DNA from: an uncultured Thermoleophilia bacterium
GTDB taxonomy: Bacteria; Actinomycetota; Thermoleophilia; UBA2241
Reading direction: 5' to 3'
Assembly: GCA_963715985.1 (NCBI GenBank)
Contig: CAVQSP010000013.1
Span: 192,001 to 256,000 of the forward strand
Length of the DNA stretch: 64,000 bases
The position numbers and the translations under genes were made by a program. The number at the start of each line of letters is the position of its first letter. The first letter of the stretch is position 1. Positions 6,925 to 37,339 of this stretch are shown piece by piece. The notes beneath the pieces are model-generated. The model ran no database searches. It was given only the letters and a program-made list of their open reading frames with translations, and was not told where the DNA came from.

Positions 6925-7580
6925 GGCAGCAGGTCCCGGACGTCGCCGGGCGGGGCCTCGTGCTCGGCCTCGCCCTTGTCCTTGCCGCCGATGGCGAGGC
7001 CGGCGACGCGGTAGAAGTCGTGCGTGTGGCGCTTGCCCGGTCCCGAGATGAGCAGGTCCTCCTTCTCGTACACCATGTTCTGCCGGTCGTACTCGCACAT
7101 CTCCACGTCCGGCGTCAGCTGGATGGCGTAGGTGGGACAGGCGTCCTCGCAGTAGCCGCAGAAGATGCAGCGCGAGAAGTTGATGCGGAAGGTGGCCGGG
7201 TAGCGGCGGCCGTGCTCGTCCTGGGTGGCCTGCAGGGCGATGCAGTCCACGGGGCAGGCCACCGAGCACAGGTAGCAGGCCACGCAGCGCTCCTCGCCCT
7301 GCGGGTCGCGGGTGAGCACGATGCGGCCGCGGTAGCGCGGCGGCAGGTAGACCATCTCGTCGGGGTACTCGATGGTGTCGCGCGGGCGGAAGGCGTGGCC
7401 GATGACCACACCGATGCCCTGCAGCGTGGAGACCACGGTGCGGTAGACGCGCGGCGCCAGCGACTGGCCGCGCCGCGCCAGCCGCCCCGTGACCACCACG
7501 TCGGTCGTCAGTGGCGGGTGCATGTCCACCTCGGCGGCCTCGCGGCCCTGGGGCCGTGTGTGCTGTGGGTGTGTGCTCAC
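6921..7580 (-). CDS. nuoI: NADH-quinone oxidoreductase subunit I
   Basis: Two 4Fe-4S motifs, [12 protein letters not shown] and [12 protein letters not shown]. Confidence 0.96.
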
Positions 7581-7590
7581 GTCGCCGGCC

Positions 7591-8583
7591 TCACTGGAAG
7601 CGCGCCACCACGATGGCGCCGGTCACGAGCAGGTTGACGAGACTGAGCGGCAGCATGGCCTTCCAGCCGAGGGCCATGAGCTGGTCGTAGCGCGGCCGCG
7701 GGAAGGTGGCACGCGCCACGATGAAGCAGCTGATGAAGATCGCCGTCTTGATGAGGAACCACAGCCACCCCGGCAGCCACGGTCCCAACCAGCCGCCGAA
7801 GAACAGCGTGGCGATGAGCGCCGAGATGAGCGTGATGGCCACGTACTCGCCCACCATGAACAGCCCGAACTTCATGCCCGAGTACTCGGTGTGGTAGCCG
7901 GCCACCAGCTCGCTCTCCGCCTCCACGAGGTCGAAGGGGATGCGTCGCGTCTCGGCAAGGCCGGCGATCACGAACACGACGAAGCCGATGAACTGGGGCA
8001 CCACGTACCAGACGCCGTCCTGGCCCTCCACGATGTCCTGCAGATCGAAGCTCCCCGCCATCAGCACGACGCCGACGAGCGAGAGGCCCATGAACACCTC
8101 GTAGCTCACCATCTGGGCGGCGGCGCGCAGGCCGCCGATCAGGGAGTACTTGCTGTGCGACGCCCAGCCCGCGAGCACCACGCTGTACACCGCCAGCGAC
8201 GACATCGCGAGGAAGAAGAGCAGGCCGATGTTGAGGTCGGCCACCACCACGCCCTGCGTGACCGGGATGACCATGAACGAGAGCAGGGCGGTGACGAGCA
8301 CGATGGGCGGGGCGGCGATGAAGAGGGCGCGGTCGGCGAACGGCGGCACCCAGTCCTCCTTGAAGAGGATCTTGAAGGTGTCGGCGAGGACCTGCATCAG
8401 GCCGGCCGGGCCCACGCGGTTGGGGCCGAGCCGGTCCTGCACGAGTCCGAGCAGACGGCGCTCATACCAGATGAGCCCGGCGGCGATGAGCAGCACCACG
8501 AGCAGCACGCCGAGCACGGTGAGGAGCTGCCAGAACCAGGTGGCGCTGCTGGCGACGAGCGGGTGCTGGAGGAGGCCGGGCAT
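7591..8583 (-). CDS. nuoH: NADH-quinone oxidoreductase subunit H
   Basis: [54 protein letters not shown]. Confidence 0.96.
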
Positions 8584-31285: not shown

Positions 31286-31331
31286 GCACCTCGATCCATC
31301 CGTCGGACGGCCTGCGCCGCCCGTACTCTGG

Positions 31332-31619
31332 TCAGTGCGGTGACTCCAGCACCTCTTCGAAGACCGTGACCCGGGTCGTCGGGGACTTGGCGCTCGACCA
31401 GTGCATCGCCTGCTCCAGCTCGAAGGACCCGGCGAACTCGCGCGCATGCTCGACGGTGTCCCATTCCAGCACGACGCTCACGTTGTTGGGGTCGTCGGCG
31501 GCGCGCCAGATGTGGCCGCGCCGGCAGCCAAGGCGCCGGCGCCGCTCGGCGTCGTCCATGTAGACTCGCTTGAGCATCTCGAAGTCGGAGATCTCGTGCT
31601 CTATGAGTACGTACGCCAT
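31332..31619 (-). CDS. Small dimeric alpha/beta-barrel (ABM/cyclase-like) protein
   Basis: Aligns end to end with 30586..30873. Confidence 0.7.
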   Translation of the reverse strand: MAYVLIEHEISDFEMLKRVYMDDAERRRRLGCRRGHIWRAADDPNNVSVVLEWDTVEHAREFAGSFELEQAMHWSSAKSPTTRVTVFEEVLESPH

Positions 31620-31751
31620 GACTGCGGCCCCTCTCTGCTCAGGGCGCGATCGTCGTCCGTCTGCGGATCGCGCCGGCCTTCACAGTCAGTCTACCCGGGC
31701 CCACGGTCGACGCTTGCCCACGTGGCCCGGCGCCGACGGCCGGGCGAACCG

Positions 31752-32415
31752 CTAGGTCAGCTCGTCGAGGTGGCACTCGCCGCCGGGTCCGGCGATCACG
31801 AGGAGCATGTCTCCCTCCGCGATCTTCAGGCCAGGGCCCGGCATGACGATCTCGCTGCCGCGAAGCACGGCGGCCGGATGGCAGCTCGGAGGCATCCGCA
31901 GCTCCTCGAACGTTCTTCCCGCCAGGCTTCCGCCCTCGGTCGCCGTGATGGACGTGATGGTGACCTCCCCCTCCTTGAGGTCGAGAAGCTTGACCAGGTC
32001 GGTCAGGGTGGCCTCTTCCTCGATCAGCCGGGCGACGATCTGCGCGGAATCGAGGGCCACGTCAACGCCCCAGCTGCGGTTGTACAGCCAGCGGTTGCGG
32101 GGATTGCGGACGGCGGCGATGACCTTCTTCACCTTGTACTCGTTCTTGGCCAGCAGGCAGGCGACGAGGTTGTCCTCGTCGTCCCCCGTGGCGGCGACGA
32201 ACACGTCGGCGCGGTCCGTGCCCGCCTCGAGCAGCACGCTGGGCTCGTCGGCGTCCCCCTGCAACACGGTGACTTCCGCCCAGCCGATGAACTCCTCGAC
32301 CATGGCCTTGCAGCGCTGCGGCGTCCTGCTCGATGAGCGTCACGGTGTGCTCTTTGCTCACGTAGCGCGTGACGCGCCGGCCGAGCCTGCCGGCGCCGGC
32401 AACGACGACTCTCAT
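31752..32415 (-). CDS. TrkA/KtrA family RCK-domain protein (frameshift near 32312)
   Basis: VVVAGAGRLG, GDA, AATGDDEDNL, RCK_C domain; TGATG coupling to the upstream gene. Confidence 0.9.
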
Positions 32416-33065
32416 CACTTCCACCCCATCATCTTCTGGAACGTGTCCACAGCGGATGTGTGCACCAGCACGTGCACCTGGTCGTCCTTCTCGAACGTGG
32501 TTCCGGAGACCGGCAGGAACCCCCGGCCCATGCGCACGATGAGCGCGACGCGGATCTCACCGGGCACGCGGAGGTCGTTGACCGGCTTCCCGATGAAGTG
32601 CTCCGGGACCCACGCGGCGAGCATCTGGATCTCGCCGTTGCCGAACGTGTGCTCGCGTTCCAGGTCGGCGCTGGTGATGAGCTCGATGATCTTGCTCGCG
32701 CTCCAGGCCGTCGGCGCGAACGTCTGCACGCCGTACCGTCGGTAGATCTCGGCGCGCTGCGGGTCGTAGATGCGGCTGATCACATCCGGCACCCGGTAGA
32801 CCTCCTTGGCGACACGCGCGGTCACGGCATTGGTGTTGTCGCCGGAGGTGGCCGCCACGAGCGCGTCCGCCTCGGCGATGCCGGCATCCTCCAGGACGGA
32901 GCGCTCGAAGGCGTAGCCCTCAAGGGTGCGTCCACTGAAGCCGTGGGGCAGCAGGCGGAACGCCATGGGGTCCTTGTCGATGACCACGATGTCGTGGCCC
33001 TCGCGGGCGAGCGCGGCCGCGGTGTACGCCCCGACCCTGCCGCACCCGACGATGATGACCTTCAT
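32415..33065 (-). CDS. TrkA/KtrA family RCK-domain protein
   Basis: IIVGCGRVG, AATSGDNTN, RIYDPQRAEIY; TGATG overlap with the ATPase stop. Confidence 0.93.
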   Translation of the reverse strand: MKVIIVGCGRVGAYTAAALAREGHDIVVIDKDPMAFRLLPHGFSGRTLEGYAFERSVLEDAGIAEADALVAATSGDNTNAVTARVAKEVYRVPDVISRIYDPQRAEIYRRYGVQTFAPTAWSASKIIELITSADLEREHTFGNGEIQMLAAWVPEHFIGKPVNDLRVPGEIRVALIVRMGRGFLPVSGTTFEKDDQVHVLVHTSAVDTFQKMMGWK

Positions 33066-36000
33066 CAGGCTGACTTCCTTTCGGTCGCGGTGAGGGCGGC
33101 AGGTGACGGAACCTTCCGGTGCCGCAGGAACCATTTTCTCGCCTCTTCGGCGAAGAACAAGACGACGGCCGAGATCACCAGGAAGATCCAATCGGCGAGC
33201 GTGAGCGGGCCGGTCTTGAAGATGTCGGCGATGAACGGCACGTAGGAGATGGCGAGGATGATGCCGATGCCGACGAGCTCGCCGATCACGAGGAAGCGGT
33301 TGGTGAAGAGGCCGACCTTGAAGAGCGACTCACGCTCGGTGCGGCAGCCGAAGCCGTTGGCCACCTGGCCGAACACGATGGCCGCCTGGGTCATGGTGAG
33401 GGCCTCCCGATAGACGGCGTAGTGGATGCTGGACGGGTCCATCCAGCTGGCGTCGCCCCAGGTCCAGCCGTGCGAAAGCAGCACGTACAGGAAGCCGGTG
33501 ATGGCGAAGACGGACTGGATCGCCCCGATGAATGCGACGCGGCGCAAGGTGGCTCCGCTGAGGAGGCGCTCGCTCCGCGCCCGTGGCGGCTGGTCCATGA
33601 CCCCCGGCTCCGGATGCTCGGTGCCCAGGGCGAGGCCGGGGAGGACGTCTGAGCCCAGGTCGATGGCCAGCACCTGCAGGGCGCCGAGAGGCACCAGGCC
33701 TACACCCCCGAGGGCGCAGAAGACGAAGGGGAAGAGTTCGGCCATGTTGTGCGAGAAGATGTAGGTGACCATCTTCTTGACGTTGGCGTACACCCCGCGC
33801 CCCTGCTCCACGGCCTTGATGATGCTGGCGAAGCTGTCGTCCAGCAGGATCATGGTGGCGGCCTCGCGCGAGACGTCTGTGCCCGTGAGACCCATGGCGA
33901 CGCCGATGTCGGCCTTCTTGAGGGCAGGGGCGTCGTTCACGCCGTCGCCGGTGACGGCGACGATCTGCCCCATATCCTTGAGAGCGGTCACGACCTGCAT
34001 CTTGTGCTCCGGCGCGACCCTCGCGAAGATCACGTCCTGCGGCTTCTGCAGCTCGGCCTTGAGGTCATTCTCGGTCATTGCTTCGAGGTCGACGCCGGTG
34101 ACGACGCGCACGTTCCTGTCCCCGCGGACGATGCCGATGCGGCGGGCGATGGCCTCGGCAGTCAACCCGTAGTCGCCCGTCACCATGATGATGCGGATGC
34201 CGGCCGTGAGGGCGTGCTCCACGGCCTCGCTCACCTCCGGCCGCGGCGGGTCGATCATGCCGACGAGACCGAGGAAGGTGAGGTCGGTCTCGACCGCGTC
34301 GGGAGCGTAGTCGGTGAGCTCGTTCGGCAGGTCGCGCTCGCACACCGCCAGCACGCGCAACGCCTGCCGCGACATCTCGTCGTTCTGCGCCACGATGCGC
34401 TCGCGCAGCTCGTCGGTCATGGCGACGACGTCGCCGTCCAGGCGCATGCGCGTGCAGCGCGACAGGGTCTCAGAGGGCGCGCCTTTGACGTAGGCCTTCT
34501 GGCCGTCGCCCTCCACGTGCACCACGGACATGCGCTTGCGCACCGACTCGAACGGCAGCTCGTAGATCTTGGGCCGTTCGATGAGCTCCGTCTGCAGGTC
34601 GAAGTCGGCCTTCTGTGCGGCGACGAGCAGGCAGCCCTCGGTGGGGTCACCGATCACGCGCCAGCCCTGGTCGTCCGACGGCGCCAGCACCTTGGCGTCG
34701 TTACAGAACGTCATGGCGCGCATCATCGGTTCGAGCTGCCGCCTGGCCTCCGTGCGGTCGAGCTCGGCGCCGTCCACGACGAACCCGCCGACAGGCTCGT
34801 AGCCGGCGCCGGTCACCTCGACGTCGCGCCCACCGACGGAGAGCGCCTTCACGGTCATCTCGGCCTTGGTGAGCGTGCCCGTCTTGTCGGTACAGATGAC
34901 GTTGGTGCACCCCAGCGTCTCCACGCTGGCGAGCTTCTTGATGAGCGCCTGGACCTTGGCCATGCGCTGCACGCCGATGGAGAGGGCCACGGACAGCGTC
35001 GCCGGCAGGCCCTCCGGCACCAGCGCCACCATCACACCGAGGGCGAACAGCAGCGCCGGGACGGCGCCGAAGTGGAAGACCAGGAGGGCCAGGACGAACA
35101 GCAGCACGCCGCAGAAGACGGCGATCATGGACACCGTCCGCGCCATGCGGTCGATCTCCTTGAGCAGCGGAGACCTCTCGTCGGAGACGCCGGCTGTGAG
35201 CGTGAAGATGCGCCCGAACTCGGTCTTGAGGCCGGTGTTGAACACGACCGCCCGCCCGGTGCCCGAGGCCACGCTCGTGCCCATGAAGACGAGGTTGGGC
35301 ATGTTGATGACGGCCAGCTCCTCTTCGAGGATGGGGTCGTCCGTCTTGCGCACCGCGTCCGACTCCCCCGTGAGGGCGATGTTGTTGGTCGAGAGCTCGT
35401 ACTGGCGCACGACGCGGGCGTCGGCGCTGATGCTGTCGCCCTCCTCCAGGACCAGCAGGTCGCCGGGGACCAGATCCTTGGCGGCGACCATGGTCACCTC
35501 GCCGTCACGCACCACTTTGGCGTTCGCAGGCACCAGCTTCTGCAACGCTTCGGTCGCCTTCTCGGCCCGGTACTCCTGGAAGAAGCCGATGATGCCGTTG
35601 AGGAGCACGACGCCGATGATGGCGACGGTGACGTTGATGTTGTCCTGGCGAGCCGAGCCGGTGGACAGCATGGCGGCGACGAAGACGAGGACCGCCGCCA
35701 CCTCGAGCATGATCGCGAAGAGCGACGTGAACTGGTCGAGGAACTTGTAGATGATCGGGCGGCTGACCTTGGCGGGCAGCACGTTGTGCCCGTACTGCTG
35801 CAGCCGCTTGAAGGCCTCGTCCTCAGTCAATCCCGCGGACGACGAGCCGAGGCGCTCGTAGACCTGGTCGTCGGGGAGCTGCCAGAGCTCGGCCGCCGGC
35901 GCGGGACCGGCCGGCCGGTCAGGCGCCGAGCCGGCCGGCCCGCTGCCGTTGCCGCCCGTCCGGTGGACGAGCGCCGGCGAAGCCGGGTCATCCTCGTCGG

Positions 36001-36067
36001 GCAGCATTGCCTGGACCCGTGAAGGGCGGATCTCCGCCCGTGTCGAGATGTGGTCATGCGGCGTCAA
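33065..36067 (-). CDS. Cation-transporting P-type ATPase, Na+/K+-ATPase-like (P2C-like)
   Basis: TGES, VPEGLPAT, DKTGTLT, KGAP, GDGVND, M6 IDLGSD; GGAGG RBS before TTG at 36067 (alternative ATG near 36007). Confidence 0.9.
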   Translation of the reverse strand: MTPHDHISTRAEIRPSRVQAMLPDEDDPASPALVHRTGGNGSGPAGSAPDRPAGPAPAAELWQLPDDQVYERLGSSSAGLTEDEAFKRLQQYGHNVLPAKVSRPIIYKFLDQFTSLFAIMLEVAAVLVFVAAMLSTGSARQDNINVTVAIIGVVLLNGIIGFFQEYRAEKATEALQKLVPANAKVVRDGEVTMVAAKDLVPGDLLVLEEGDSISADARVVRQYELSTNNIALTGESDAVRKTDDPILEEELAVINMPNLVFMGTSVASGTGRAVVFNTGLKTEFGRIFTLTAGVSDERSPLLKEIDRMARTVSMIAVFCGVLLFVLALLVFHFGAVPALLFALGVMVALVPEGLPATLSVALSIGVQRMAKVQALIKKLASVETLGCTNVICTDKTGTLTKAEMTVKALSVGGRDVEVTGAGYEPVGGFVVDGAELDRTEARRQLEPMMRAMTFCNDAKVLAPSDDQGWRVIGDPTEGCLLVAAQKADFDLQTELIERPKIYELPFESVRKRMSVVHVEGDGQKAYVKGAPSETLSRCTRMRLDGDVVAMTDELRERIVAQNDEMSRQALRVLAVCERDLPNELTDYAPDAVETDLTFLGLVGMIDPPRPEVSEAVEHALTAGIRIIMVTGDYGLTAEAIARRIGIVRGDRNVRVVTGVDLEAMTENDLKAELQKPQDVIFARVAPEHKMQVVTALKDMGQIVAVTGDGVNDAPALKKADIGVAMGLTGTDVSREAATMILLDDSFASIIKAVEQGRGVYANVKKMVTYIFSHNMAELFPFVFCALGGVGLVPLGALQVLAIDLGSDVLPGLALGTEHPEPGVMDQPPRARSERLLSGATLRRVAFIGAIQSVFAITGFLYVLLSHGWTWGDASWMDPSSIHYAVYREALTMTQAAIVFGQVANGFGCRTERESLFKVGLFTNRFLVIGELVGIGIILAISYVPFIADIFKTGPLTLADWIFLVISAVVLFFAEEARKWFLRHRKVPSPAALTATERKSA

Positions 36068-36127
36068 GCGTCGCCTCCATCTGCTGCCGCCTGATAGCGC
36101 AGGCGGAAACGGCACATACGACATCAG

Positions 36128-36192
36128 AGGGTAGCGAGCAGCCCGTGAACCCGGCGTGAAGCAGGGGCCCCGGACCCTCAAGAAGCCGTTAA
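36128..36192 (-). promoter_or_regulatory. Putative KdpE-activated promoter (four half-sites plus -10 TACCCT) for the P-type ATPase-trkA-trkA unit
   Basis: Plus-strand boxes GTGAA 36145, GTGAA 36156, CTCAA 36177, GTTAA 36188; same geometry as three other sites. Confidence 0.7.
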
Positions 36193-37339
36193 GGCTCCGG
36201 CGCGCCTTGCTCGGATCTGCCACGATGAGGATGTCGACGTGCTCCATGTCCCGCATGAGCCGCATCACGAGCGGCGAGCCGCGCAGCACTTCGTTGGCGC
36301 GGCTCCGCTTTGACTGGCCGAGCACGATGAAGGTGGCGCGCTTCTGGCGTGCGAACTTCAGGATCTCCTCGGCGATCGAATCGCCGCTGAGCTCCACGGC
36401 ATGCCCGCCGAGCTCGTGGGTCAGATCGAACAGGCGCTTGAGCTCCTTCGTGTGGCCGGGCGACTGCGGCCCCTTGTGCACGTACACGACCCAGAAGGGG
36501 CCCCGGAAGCGGTGCGCCAGACGGTGACCACGGCGCACCAGCTTCGCCGCGACCTGGCCCGGCCGCAGGCAGACCACCACCCGCTCCTCCGTCGTCAACG
36601 GGCGCTCGGTCTCGCGGCCGGAGATGTAGCGCTCCAGGCTCTCGTCGACCTCCTCCGCGGCCTTGCGCAGCGCCAGCTCGCGGAGGGCGACCAGGTTCTC
36701 CTGCTTGAAGAAGTTGGCCAAGGCACCGGGCACCGTGCCGAGGTCGTAGATCACACCGCGCCGGAGCCTGTTGAGGAGGGCATTGGTGGTGAGGTCCACG
36801 AGGACGATCTCGTCGGCGCGGTCGAGCACGAAGTCCGGCACGGTCTCCTGGACACGCACACCCGTGATCTGGAGCACGGTGTCGCTGAGGCTCTCCACGT
36901 GCTGGATGTTGACGGTGGTCAGTACGTCGATGTCGGCGGCGAGGATCTCCTCCACGCTCTGCCAGCGCTTCTTGTGGGCGGTCCCGGGGATGTTGGTGTG
37001 CGCGAGCTCGTCAACGAGAGCCAGCGACGGCGCACGAGCGATGACCGCCGCGGTATCGAGCTCATCGAACGCTTTGCCGCGATACTCGAGGCGCTTGAGC
37101 GGCACCTGCTCCAGGCCCTCCGCCGCCTCTGCGGTCTCCTTGCGCCCGTGCGTCTCCACGAAACCGATGACCACGTCCTCGCCACGCGAGCATCGCCGCT
37201 GGGCTTCGGCCAGCATCATGTAGGTCTTGCCGACGCCCGGGGCGTAGCCAAGGAAGACCTTCAGGTGACCGCGCTTGCGGAGCGTGCGCAGCGACAGCAC
37301 CTCCGCCACATCGTTCGCGGCTGCCCGATCGTTCGCCAT
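36189..37339 (-). CDS. kdpD: Stand-alone KdpD N-terminal sensor + USP domain protein (stop probably shifted out of frame by an indel near 36200)
   Basis: LKVFLGYAPGVGKTY, ETHGRKET, LVDELAHTN, NIQHVESL, USP domain ...IVLGQS...DILIV. Confidence 0.9.

Follow-up and report, generated by a model that had tools for sequence, protein, structure and literature searches.

A P2-type ATPase joined to two RCK genes in the Kdp locus of a Thermoleophilia genome: a candidate K+ pump module

Why should a P2-type cation ATPase be followed, with no gap, by genes for two RCK proteins, and why should this unit lie inside a Kdp locus? The question is raised by a stretch of 64,000 nucleotides (C13:192001-256000, here called the window, in whose own numbering positions are given unless a contig is named) from a metagenome-derived Thermoleophilia genome of 4.35 Mb in 22 contigs, 88.8% complete with 7.3% contamination and ∼70% G+C. 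On the minus strand of the window the ATPase gene (36067-33065; the pump) is followed by trkA1 (33065-32415), encoding an RCK protein of 216 amino acids, and trkA2 (32415-31752), each with TrkA_N and TrkA_C domains. The answer that we somewhat favour from sequence comparison is that the pump brings in K+ in exchange for H+ or Na+ and is under the control of a hetero-oligomer of the two RCK proteins; the ion, the direction of transport, the stoichiometry and a direct contact between RCK proteins and pump are what we infer. The conserved core appears to be the pump with its RCK pair, which in the window's genus seems to have been recruited into the KdpDE regulon.

The preliminary description of this DNA had the ATPase and the two trkA genes joined by TGATG overlaps at 33065 and 32415, and both overlaps are present. 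The pump TGA (33067-33065) shares bases with the trkA1 ATG (33065-33063), and the trkA1 TGA (32417-32415) does the same with the trkA2 ATG (32415-32413), all on the minus strand. The order of pump and two RCK genes is likewise borne out. Not mentioned there is that trkA2 is broken in the window by one extra base near 32322, the gene being split over two frames.

The same order was found to be widely conserved when synteny was surveyed. TrkA1-like and TrkA2-like genes lie downstream of the pump in all ten loci of the window's genus. Beyond the genus, 61 of 400 other Actinomycetota genomes carry a pump homologue at a threshold of E≤1e-200 (44 of 248 genera, counting the window genome, G000), and in 28 of the best 29 Actinomycetota loci the TrkA pair is directly downstream; the 29th has tandem pumps, with the pair behind the second copy (L141). 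Among loci with wide flanks the pair is downstream in 19 of 20, the exception being the most distant at 42% identity. Pump and TrkA genes often overlap across loci. Two further phyla show the same order, in one Erysipelotrichaceae and one Anaerolinea genome, the Anaerolinea locus having a KdpE-like regulator gene 7 kb upstream.

The two RCK proteins are paralogues, with 26% identity between those of locus L022. Each is ∼220 amino acids long, half of a full-length TrkA, and aligns with roughly half the length of the TrkA models (446-458 positions); the scores are far below the equivalog cut-offs (125 against 293 bits). In TrkA1 a GxGxxG motif is present and β2 ends in an acidic residue, G7, G9, G12 and D30 being invariant in 30 orthologues; both features are also kept in TrkA2 (27 orthologues). 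Since the glycine motif and the acidic residue are kept in all aligned orthologues, nucleotide binding by both proteins is likely. A weak test for cyclic di-AMP (c-di-AMP) binding, using the literal RCK_C signature given in the accessible text of PMC10117811, matched none of 29 TrkA1 and none of 27 TrkA2 sequences.

The pump has the Pfam domains Cation_ATPase_N, E1-E2_ATPase, Cation_ATPase, Hydrolase and Cation_ATPase_C, all over cut-off, and its motifs DKTGT, TGES, PEGL and GDGVNDAP identify it as a type 2 (ten-helix) P-type ATPase. Numbered from the Met codon at 36007, its ion-site signature is E332, Y749, S752, H753, N754, E757, D783, S786, D787, Q881 and N884. Four ion-site helix strings had been quoted in the preliminary description as resembling those of the Na,K-ATPase; all four occur in the translation and were placed by HMMER alignment on M4 (VALVPEGLP against VANVPEGLL), M5 (YIFSHNMAELFPF against YTLTSNIPEITPF), M6 (IDLGSD against IDLGTD) and M8 (GQVANGFGCRTERES against VQWADLVICKTRRNS) of that enzyme. 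The ion-site residues of the Na,K-ATPase are E327, S775, N776, E779, D804, D808, Q923 and D926 (pig numbering); the pump is identical at six of these eight positions, namely the Glu of M4, the Asn and the Glu of M5, the two Asp of M6 and the Gln of M8. None of the pump's ion-site residues varies among 12 close homologues, the His and Asn at the other two positions included. Kept as well is the juxtamembrane C-terminal E-x-R-K...R-R motif of the Na,K-ATPase. Searched by phmmer against proteins of solved structure, the pump matched the Na,K-ATPase best (503 bits), followed by the H,K-ATPase (482), SPCA (477), a Listeria Ca2+-ATPase (470) and SERCA (461). The claim that the ion site is closer to the Na,K and H,K pumps than to SERCA is in line with the residues (6/8) and with the M6 Asp; it does not extend to whole-sequence models, where the Na,K/H,K model reaches 579 bits against 622 for the PMR1-type.

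The M6 Asp also marks a division among the P2 pumps sampled. We built a FastTree phylogeny of 104 such pumps, a set without named eukaryotic or SERCA reference sequences. Seventy rows were intact open reading frames from a mixed sample of 79 loci fetched with generic P-type motifs, which serve as background rather than as orthologues and of which nine were dropped for stops, gaps or length; the other 34 rows were family members, 11 of them database proteins labelled by family, their neighbours unchecked. A clade with Asp at the first M6 ion-site position (53 rows, including the window pump with Asp783) was split with support of 99 from a clade of 51 rows, 50 of which have Asn there (L074 has Asp). 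We take this Asn to be equivalent to N796 of SERCA and the Asn-type clade to be Ca2+-pump-like; on these terms, and in a tree lacking named SERCA, the phylogeny places the pump outside the Ca2+-pump-like group. Within the Asp-type clade the signatures are SHN...DSD (the window's type), [AT]SN...DTD (nearly identical to Na,K) and AHL...DTE, and a Methanobacterium gene (L033) falls inside it. Where at least 1.5 kb of flank was available in the mixed sample, the TrkA pair was found in four of 17 Asp-clade loci against none of 45 Asn-clade loci. Four loci (L141 in G042, L143 in G101, L144 in G058 and L158 in G318) carry two family pumps, either in tandem or on the two sides of a single RCK pair. 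The first of the two copies in G042 is of a His type (L112) and the second of a Ser type (L141), and in each of the other three loci one copy was typed.

What connects the unit to K+ starvation in this genus is its promoter. The pattern CTTNAYGNNNNCTTNAYG, with up to two mismatches allowed, matched 13 times in the window against 5.25 expected, a count reached by none of 100 shuffles. Eight of the 13 matches form four pairs spaced exactly 32 bp apart on the gene (minus) strand, one before the kinase gene of kdpD (composite site 45574-45525), two before kdpF, each ahead of a small open reading frame (42753-42704 and 42341-42292), and one before the pump, where the box pairs at 36193-36176 and 36161-36144 have half sites every 11 bp and one mismatch each to the pattern. 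Scanning the whole genome of 4.35 Mb returned these four composite sites only, with an estimated chance expectation of ∼0.015. A 22-bp KdpE site of Mycobacterium smegmatis has been footprinted (accessible text of PMC5401905), and its reverse complement contains the same two half sites, 11 bp apart. The boxes are present upstream of the pump in all six genus loci examined. The earlier statement that the unit has its own KdpE-type promoter is borne out at the sequence level by tandem boxes that form one of only four such sites in the genome and resemble the mycobacterial site, and membership of the pump in the KdpDE regulon is the reading that these sites suggest for the window's genus.

Downstream of the boxes, again on the minus strand, a putative -10-like TACCCT (36133-36128) and a Shine-Dalgarno sequence, GGAGG (36078-36074), could be read from the sequence, and just before the latter lies a leader hairpin with a 7-bp stem and 6-nt loop (CCGCCTG-6-CAGGCGG, 36106-36087). 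The hairpin could be a regulatory or stabilising element; the pump leader that includes it is conserved in L030, the closest locus. A consensus scan of 31300-36400 gave no σ70 promoter and no intrinsic terminator, the consensus being uninformative in a 70% G+C genome. At two loci of the genus, L026 and L030, kdpDE is followed directly by pump-trkA-trkA without kdpABC. L030 (G011:C15, ∼7085-7881), the closest relative, has kdpDE, small open reading frames and the first ∼15 codons of kdpF joined to the tail of kdpD-N (the sensor half of a split KdpD) and the pump promoter, a remnant suggesting clean deletion of kdpA-kdpB-kdpC-kdpD-N that left the pump under KdpE control.

How might such a unit work? 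It would act as an accessory K+ pump module of the Kdp regulon. At low K+ its own promoter, dependent on KdpE, would drive transcription, to which read-through from kdpFABC probably adds. As in its animal relatives, K+ would be taken up from outside by the pump's E2-P state and set free in the cytoplasm, with H+ or Na+ moving the other way. In the accessible text of PMC8481561, K+ site I is described through the roles of its Ser, Asn, Glu and Asp, and Lys791 of the gastric pump closes that site. In the window's subclade the site I His sits at the position of Lys791, which suggests that each cycle carries a single K+ and that the pump has a protonatable charge of its own. The translationally coupled RCK proteins would form a hetero-oligomer, bind nucleotide and switch the pump post-translationally, for example halting uptake once the K+ or energy status of the cell changes. 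More tentatively, and with less conviction than attaches to the exchanger itself, it is possible that the two RCK proteins make a hetero-ring, that this ring binds the cytoplasmic headpiece of a Na,K-ATPase-like pump, and that ATP-driven uptake of K+ is gated in this way, the family being a close prokaryotic relative of the animal Na,K and H,K pumps whose original job was K+ scavenging. On that view no earlier example of a primary ion pump under an RCK ring would be known, the family would answer concretely what prokaryotic P2C-like pumps are for, and the 'orphan' TrkA pairs of TrkH-less Actinomycetota would have a partner.

Several known systems come close to this scheme. K+ is the counter-ion imported by Na,K and H,K pumps (accessible text of PMC10654040 and PMC8481561), and the Na,K- and H,K-ATPase α-subunits (P2C) are the best matches among solved structures. 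Methanogenic archaea have Na,K-ATPase-like genes, known from genomes, with conserved Na+ and K+ site residues, their role being presented as an open question in PMC10654040. These are prokaryotic P2 pumps too, and L033 shares the Asp-type clade; unlike the window's locus, the archaeal locus in our sample has no TrkA neighbour within 2.3 kb, and whereas the archaeal genes keep all Na+ site residues according to the same review, the window's family has Asn at Asp926. The RCK_N and RCK_C domains with GxGxxG recall Trk and Ktr; here, however, two paralogues lie side by side and the neighbouring membrane protein is a P-type ATPase rather than TrkH or KtrB. With KdpFABC and KdpD/KdpE the unit shares an operon and a promoter architecture like that of kdpF and kdpD, and its pump too is a P-type ATPase whose production would be expected at low K+; yet this P2 ATPase of ten helices has an ion site of its own, unlike KdpB, which works through the channel subunit KdpA, and the KdpB model scores only 117 bits on it. 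KhtTU and CpeAB offer a precedent for RCK control of a non-channel carrier within one operon, although these are secondary antiporters regulated by c-di-AMP at RCK_C (both points from the accessible text of PMC10117811).

Several observations weigh against a K+-importing exchanger under RCK control. Two of the eight ion-site residues differ from the Na,K-ATPase, with His for the Ser775 of K+ site I and Asn for Asp926, and selectivity is therefore not readable from the ion site. The NCBIfam model for the Na,K/H,K group (TIGR01106, IIC) gives 579.3 bits against a cut-off of 946.1, and the PMR1-type model TIGR01522 scores higher at 621.8 against 798.3 (the SERCA-type TIGR01116 gives 557.6 against 703.4). 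Among eight relatives the PMR1-type model is the higher in five and the IIC model in three, their TIGR01106 scores ranging from 494 to 666 bits. Since all NCBIfam scores are below cut-off and the relatives are divided 3/8 against 5/8, the family, judged by these models, is in no curated subfamily. None of 23 loci outside the genus had KdpE-type boxes ahead of the pump, so that support for K+-starvation control is confined to the window's genus; the motif may differ between lineages. RCK proteins also regulate antiporters of the KhtU/CpeB type, besides partnering TrkH and KtrB (accessible text of PMC10117811); because they serve antiporters and other carriers, an RCK neighbour is no proof of K+. 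Finally, trkA2 is frameshifted in the window, and the RCK pair may not be intact in the window's strain. From P2C pumps the unit is further set apart by its RCK neighbours and KdpDE-type sites. To our knowledge neither RCK partnership nor KdpDE control has been known for a P2C pump. P2C pumps also have an obligatory β subunit; a β or FXYD subunit gene was not evident among the named neighbours, no search aimed at β-like genes having been made.

One alternative is that the pump mainly extrudes Na+ (or H+) at low K+ or high Na+, with K+ only a counter-ion or not transported at all and the RCK pair still regulating it. We regard this as unlikely, albeit the best of the alternatives. The Tyr, Ser/Thr and Gln of the Na+-only site of the Na,K-ATPase are retained, high Na+ and NH4+ likewise elicit a response of the M. 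smegmatis Kdp system (PMC5401905), and one homologue carries the name 'potassium/sodium efflux P-type ATPase', though that name is automatic. Yet at Asp926, a residue of the same Na+-only site, the window's clade and the most frequent of the other signatures have Asn, and other TrkA-linked rows have Thr, Val, Gln or Ser; the fungal Na+/K+-efflux model scores far lower on the pump (410 bits); and a position behind kdpFABC, or near Trk genes in other lineages, better suits uptake.

A second alternative is that the RCK pair serves another membrane protein encoded elsewhere (TrkH or KtrB, a channel or an antiporter) and is co-transcribed with the pump because both take part in K+ homeostasis. The established partnerships of RCK proteins mentioned above lend this some weight, as do the presence of a TrkH family gene in 39 of the 61 pump-bearing genomes and the existence of orphan TrkA pairs; the window genome itself has another adjacent pair of TrkA_N-containing genes at C20:257512-258285, on a different contig from its only TrkH match (C13). 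Against it stand the constancy of the pair directly behind the pump (28/29 and 19/20 loci, across many families and two other phyla, often overlapping) and the lack of TrkA neighbours at any of the 45 Asn-type P2 pumps. The distribution of TrkH points the same way. PF02386 (TrkH/KtrB) was unmatched in 22 of the 61 pump-bearing genomes, by counts read by hand from two tables of the same 400-genome draw; 20 of these 22 are at least 89% complete, one is a complete genome of 9.2 Mb, 11 have a verified pump-trkA-trkA locus and one more a partial locus. The window holds no TrkH/KtrB gene, as the preliminary description had said: the only PF02386 match in the genome is ∼145 kb away on the contig (C13:45950-47257), and this single TrkH has its own RCK genes alongside. 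TrkH was also absent from the ten genus loci. At 88.8% completeness the genome yielded no PF02705 (Kup) match either, the search not extending to KimA-type carriers. We consider another partner for the pair improbable. Four of 24 wide loci (L147, L153, L154 and L156) are 'K+ islands', in which pump-trkA-trkA immediately adjoins a TrkH-like gene together with three to five further RCK genes.

The reading frames of the window raise a different possibility, which concerns where the pump begins. Its frame has no stop from 37339 to 33065, giving one open reading frame of 1424 amino acids that starts with KdpD-N and Usp domains. Were this frame real and functional in the window's strain, a cytoplasmic KdpD-N/Usp sensor would be fused to the N-terminus of the pump, and K+ or nucleotide sensing would act on the pump directly. 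The two joined ends are indeed both cytoplasmic, and sequencing run X2 agrees with the window at 36202, lacking an extra base there at a depth of 8.8; at 32322, the site of the trkA2 frameshift, runs X1 and X2 agree with it at a depth of 2. X1 and X2 contain the stretch best and may be the source sample, so that the window may show either an assembly error or a real strain allele at these places. No RNA run was listed among those containing the stretch. We nevertheless think such a fusion quite unlikely. G+C at third codon positions drops from ∼0.9 to 0.55-0.75 between ∼36190 and ∼36030, a fall that makes this stretch look non-coding, and it is made up of regulatory sequence: the four half-site boxes, the -10-like hexamer, the leader hairpin and the GGAGG, which stands six bases ahead of a TTG at 36067. 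An independently called homologue (P0003, 1002 amino acids) begins at the codon equivalent to this TTG, which is the likely pump start by sequence, giving 1000 amino acids as against 980 from the ATG at 36007. The unit boundary at 36192 in the preliminary description is accordingly no gene start. In all eight relatives' loci that carry kdpD-N this gene stops, 5-30 codons past a conserved VADPSK. Among the 120 of 210 homologue matches that were listed, no KdpD-N::pump fusion was present, the longest being 1016 amino acids and none having PF02702, and a homologue with 96% identity to the pump is an unfused protein of 964 amino acids. In run X4 an environmental contig that is nearly identical carries an additional base at 36202, with which KdpD-N ends ...SKASPEP at a TAA (36191-36189) inside the first KdpE box. 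Moreover, an in-frame 60-codon linker would be open by chance about once in ten, as estimated from base composition.

The frameshift in trkA2 is of a similar kind. The first ∼35 codons and the other 183 are in different frames in the window, 112 nt apart, as compared with 111 nt in all eight relatives' loci in which both parts were matched. Three near-identical contigs (runs X3 and X4) lack the extra base at 32322, so that their trkA2 keeps a single frame through ...IEQDPQRCKAM..., which is also the reading of all relatives. Since near-identical environmental contigs carry the normal stop and an intact trkA2, both the frameshift and the continuous KdpD-N::pump frame are, on the evidence of the sequences, peculiarities of the assembly or strain and not features of the family. 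The kdpA, kdpB, kdpC and pump genes of several sister genomes (L023, L027, L030 and L031) show numerous frame breaks, which suggests indel-prone assemblies and calls for caution with pseudogene calls in the genus.

That the pump is an ordinary bacterial Ca2+ (or Mn2+/Mg2+) P2A pump with incidental Na,K-like residues we think very unlikely, for although the PMR1-type model is its top NCBIfam match and homologues bear automatic names as Ca2+ or Mg2+ ATPases, every curated Ca2+ and Mg2+ model falls below its cut-off, the M6 Asp (Asn in the other clade) and the M8 Gln are those of the Na,K-ATPase, the clade division has support of 99, and the gene keeps the company of the Kdp regulon and RCK genes.

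The rest of the locus is a Kdp cluster. Its order on the minus strand is the kinase half of kdpD (45024-43513; DUF4118-GAF-HisKA-HATPase, without the KdpD-N domain), kdpE (43510-42812), two small single-transmembrane open reading frames, kdpF (41867-41778), kdpA (41771-40047), kdpB (40036-37940), kdpC (37929-37339) and the sensor half kdpD-N with KdpD and Usp domains (37339 to ∼36200, its start overlapping the kdpC stop), then the pump, trkA1 and trkA2. The KdpD-N half scores 302 bits with Pfam KdpD, 27 bits with Usp and 395 bits against a cut-off of 550 with NF038185, the model for a KdpD-like non-kinase K+ sensor. This division of KdpD, with the kinase half and kdpE upstream of kdpFABC and KdpD-N/Usp as a separate gene after kdpC, is kept in the eight genus loci carrying kdpD-N, and in L155 kdpABC-kdpD-N is divergent from the pump. 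The two small open reading frames (42641-42423 and 42227-41778, minus strand) each follow one of the composite sites upstream of kdpF and encode one predicted membrane helix with a basic tail; the second continues in frame, without a stop, into kdpF. Comparable frames occur in L022, where they separate kdpD-N from the pump, and in L026 and L030, where they stand between kdpE and the pump; their products might act as leader peptides or as small subunits of the pump. A second KdpF-like hydrophobic peptide of 27 amino acids is encoded just upstream of kdpF (41959-41876, minus strand) and is found in L030 too.

No account of a P2 ATPase that has TrkA proteins as partners, or that is controlled by KdpE, turned up in our literature searches, in keeping with the earlier suggestion of an undescribed system, though earlier mention is possible in papers on the P-type superfamily (Chan et al. 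2010) or on sodium-pump evolution (Palmgren 2023); a 'Family 23' of actinobacterial type 2 pumps (Chan et al. 2010) is mentioned in the accessible text of PMC3924187.

Both P-type pumps and RCK rings are standard textbook subjects. We know of no case in which they work together. Here a pump with Na,K-like ion-site residues keeps an RCK pair in conserved order behind it in many families of Actinomycetota and in two further phyla, and in one genus it appears to be wired into the K+-starvation regulon. If a K+-importing exchanger under RCK control is the correct reading, the module would be a third kind of ATP-driven or RCK-controlled bacterial K+ uptake system. It would account for TrkA pairs in genomes without TrkH and would offer a simple, β-subunit-free model for K+ counter-transport in the lineage of the Na,K and H,K pumps. 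It would also bring the question of what prokaryotic P2C-like pumps do within reach of a standard complementation assay.

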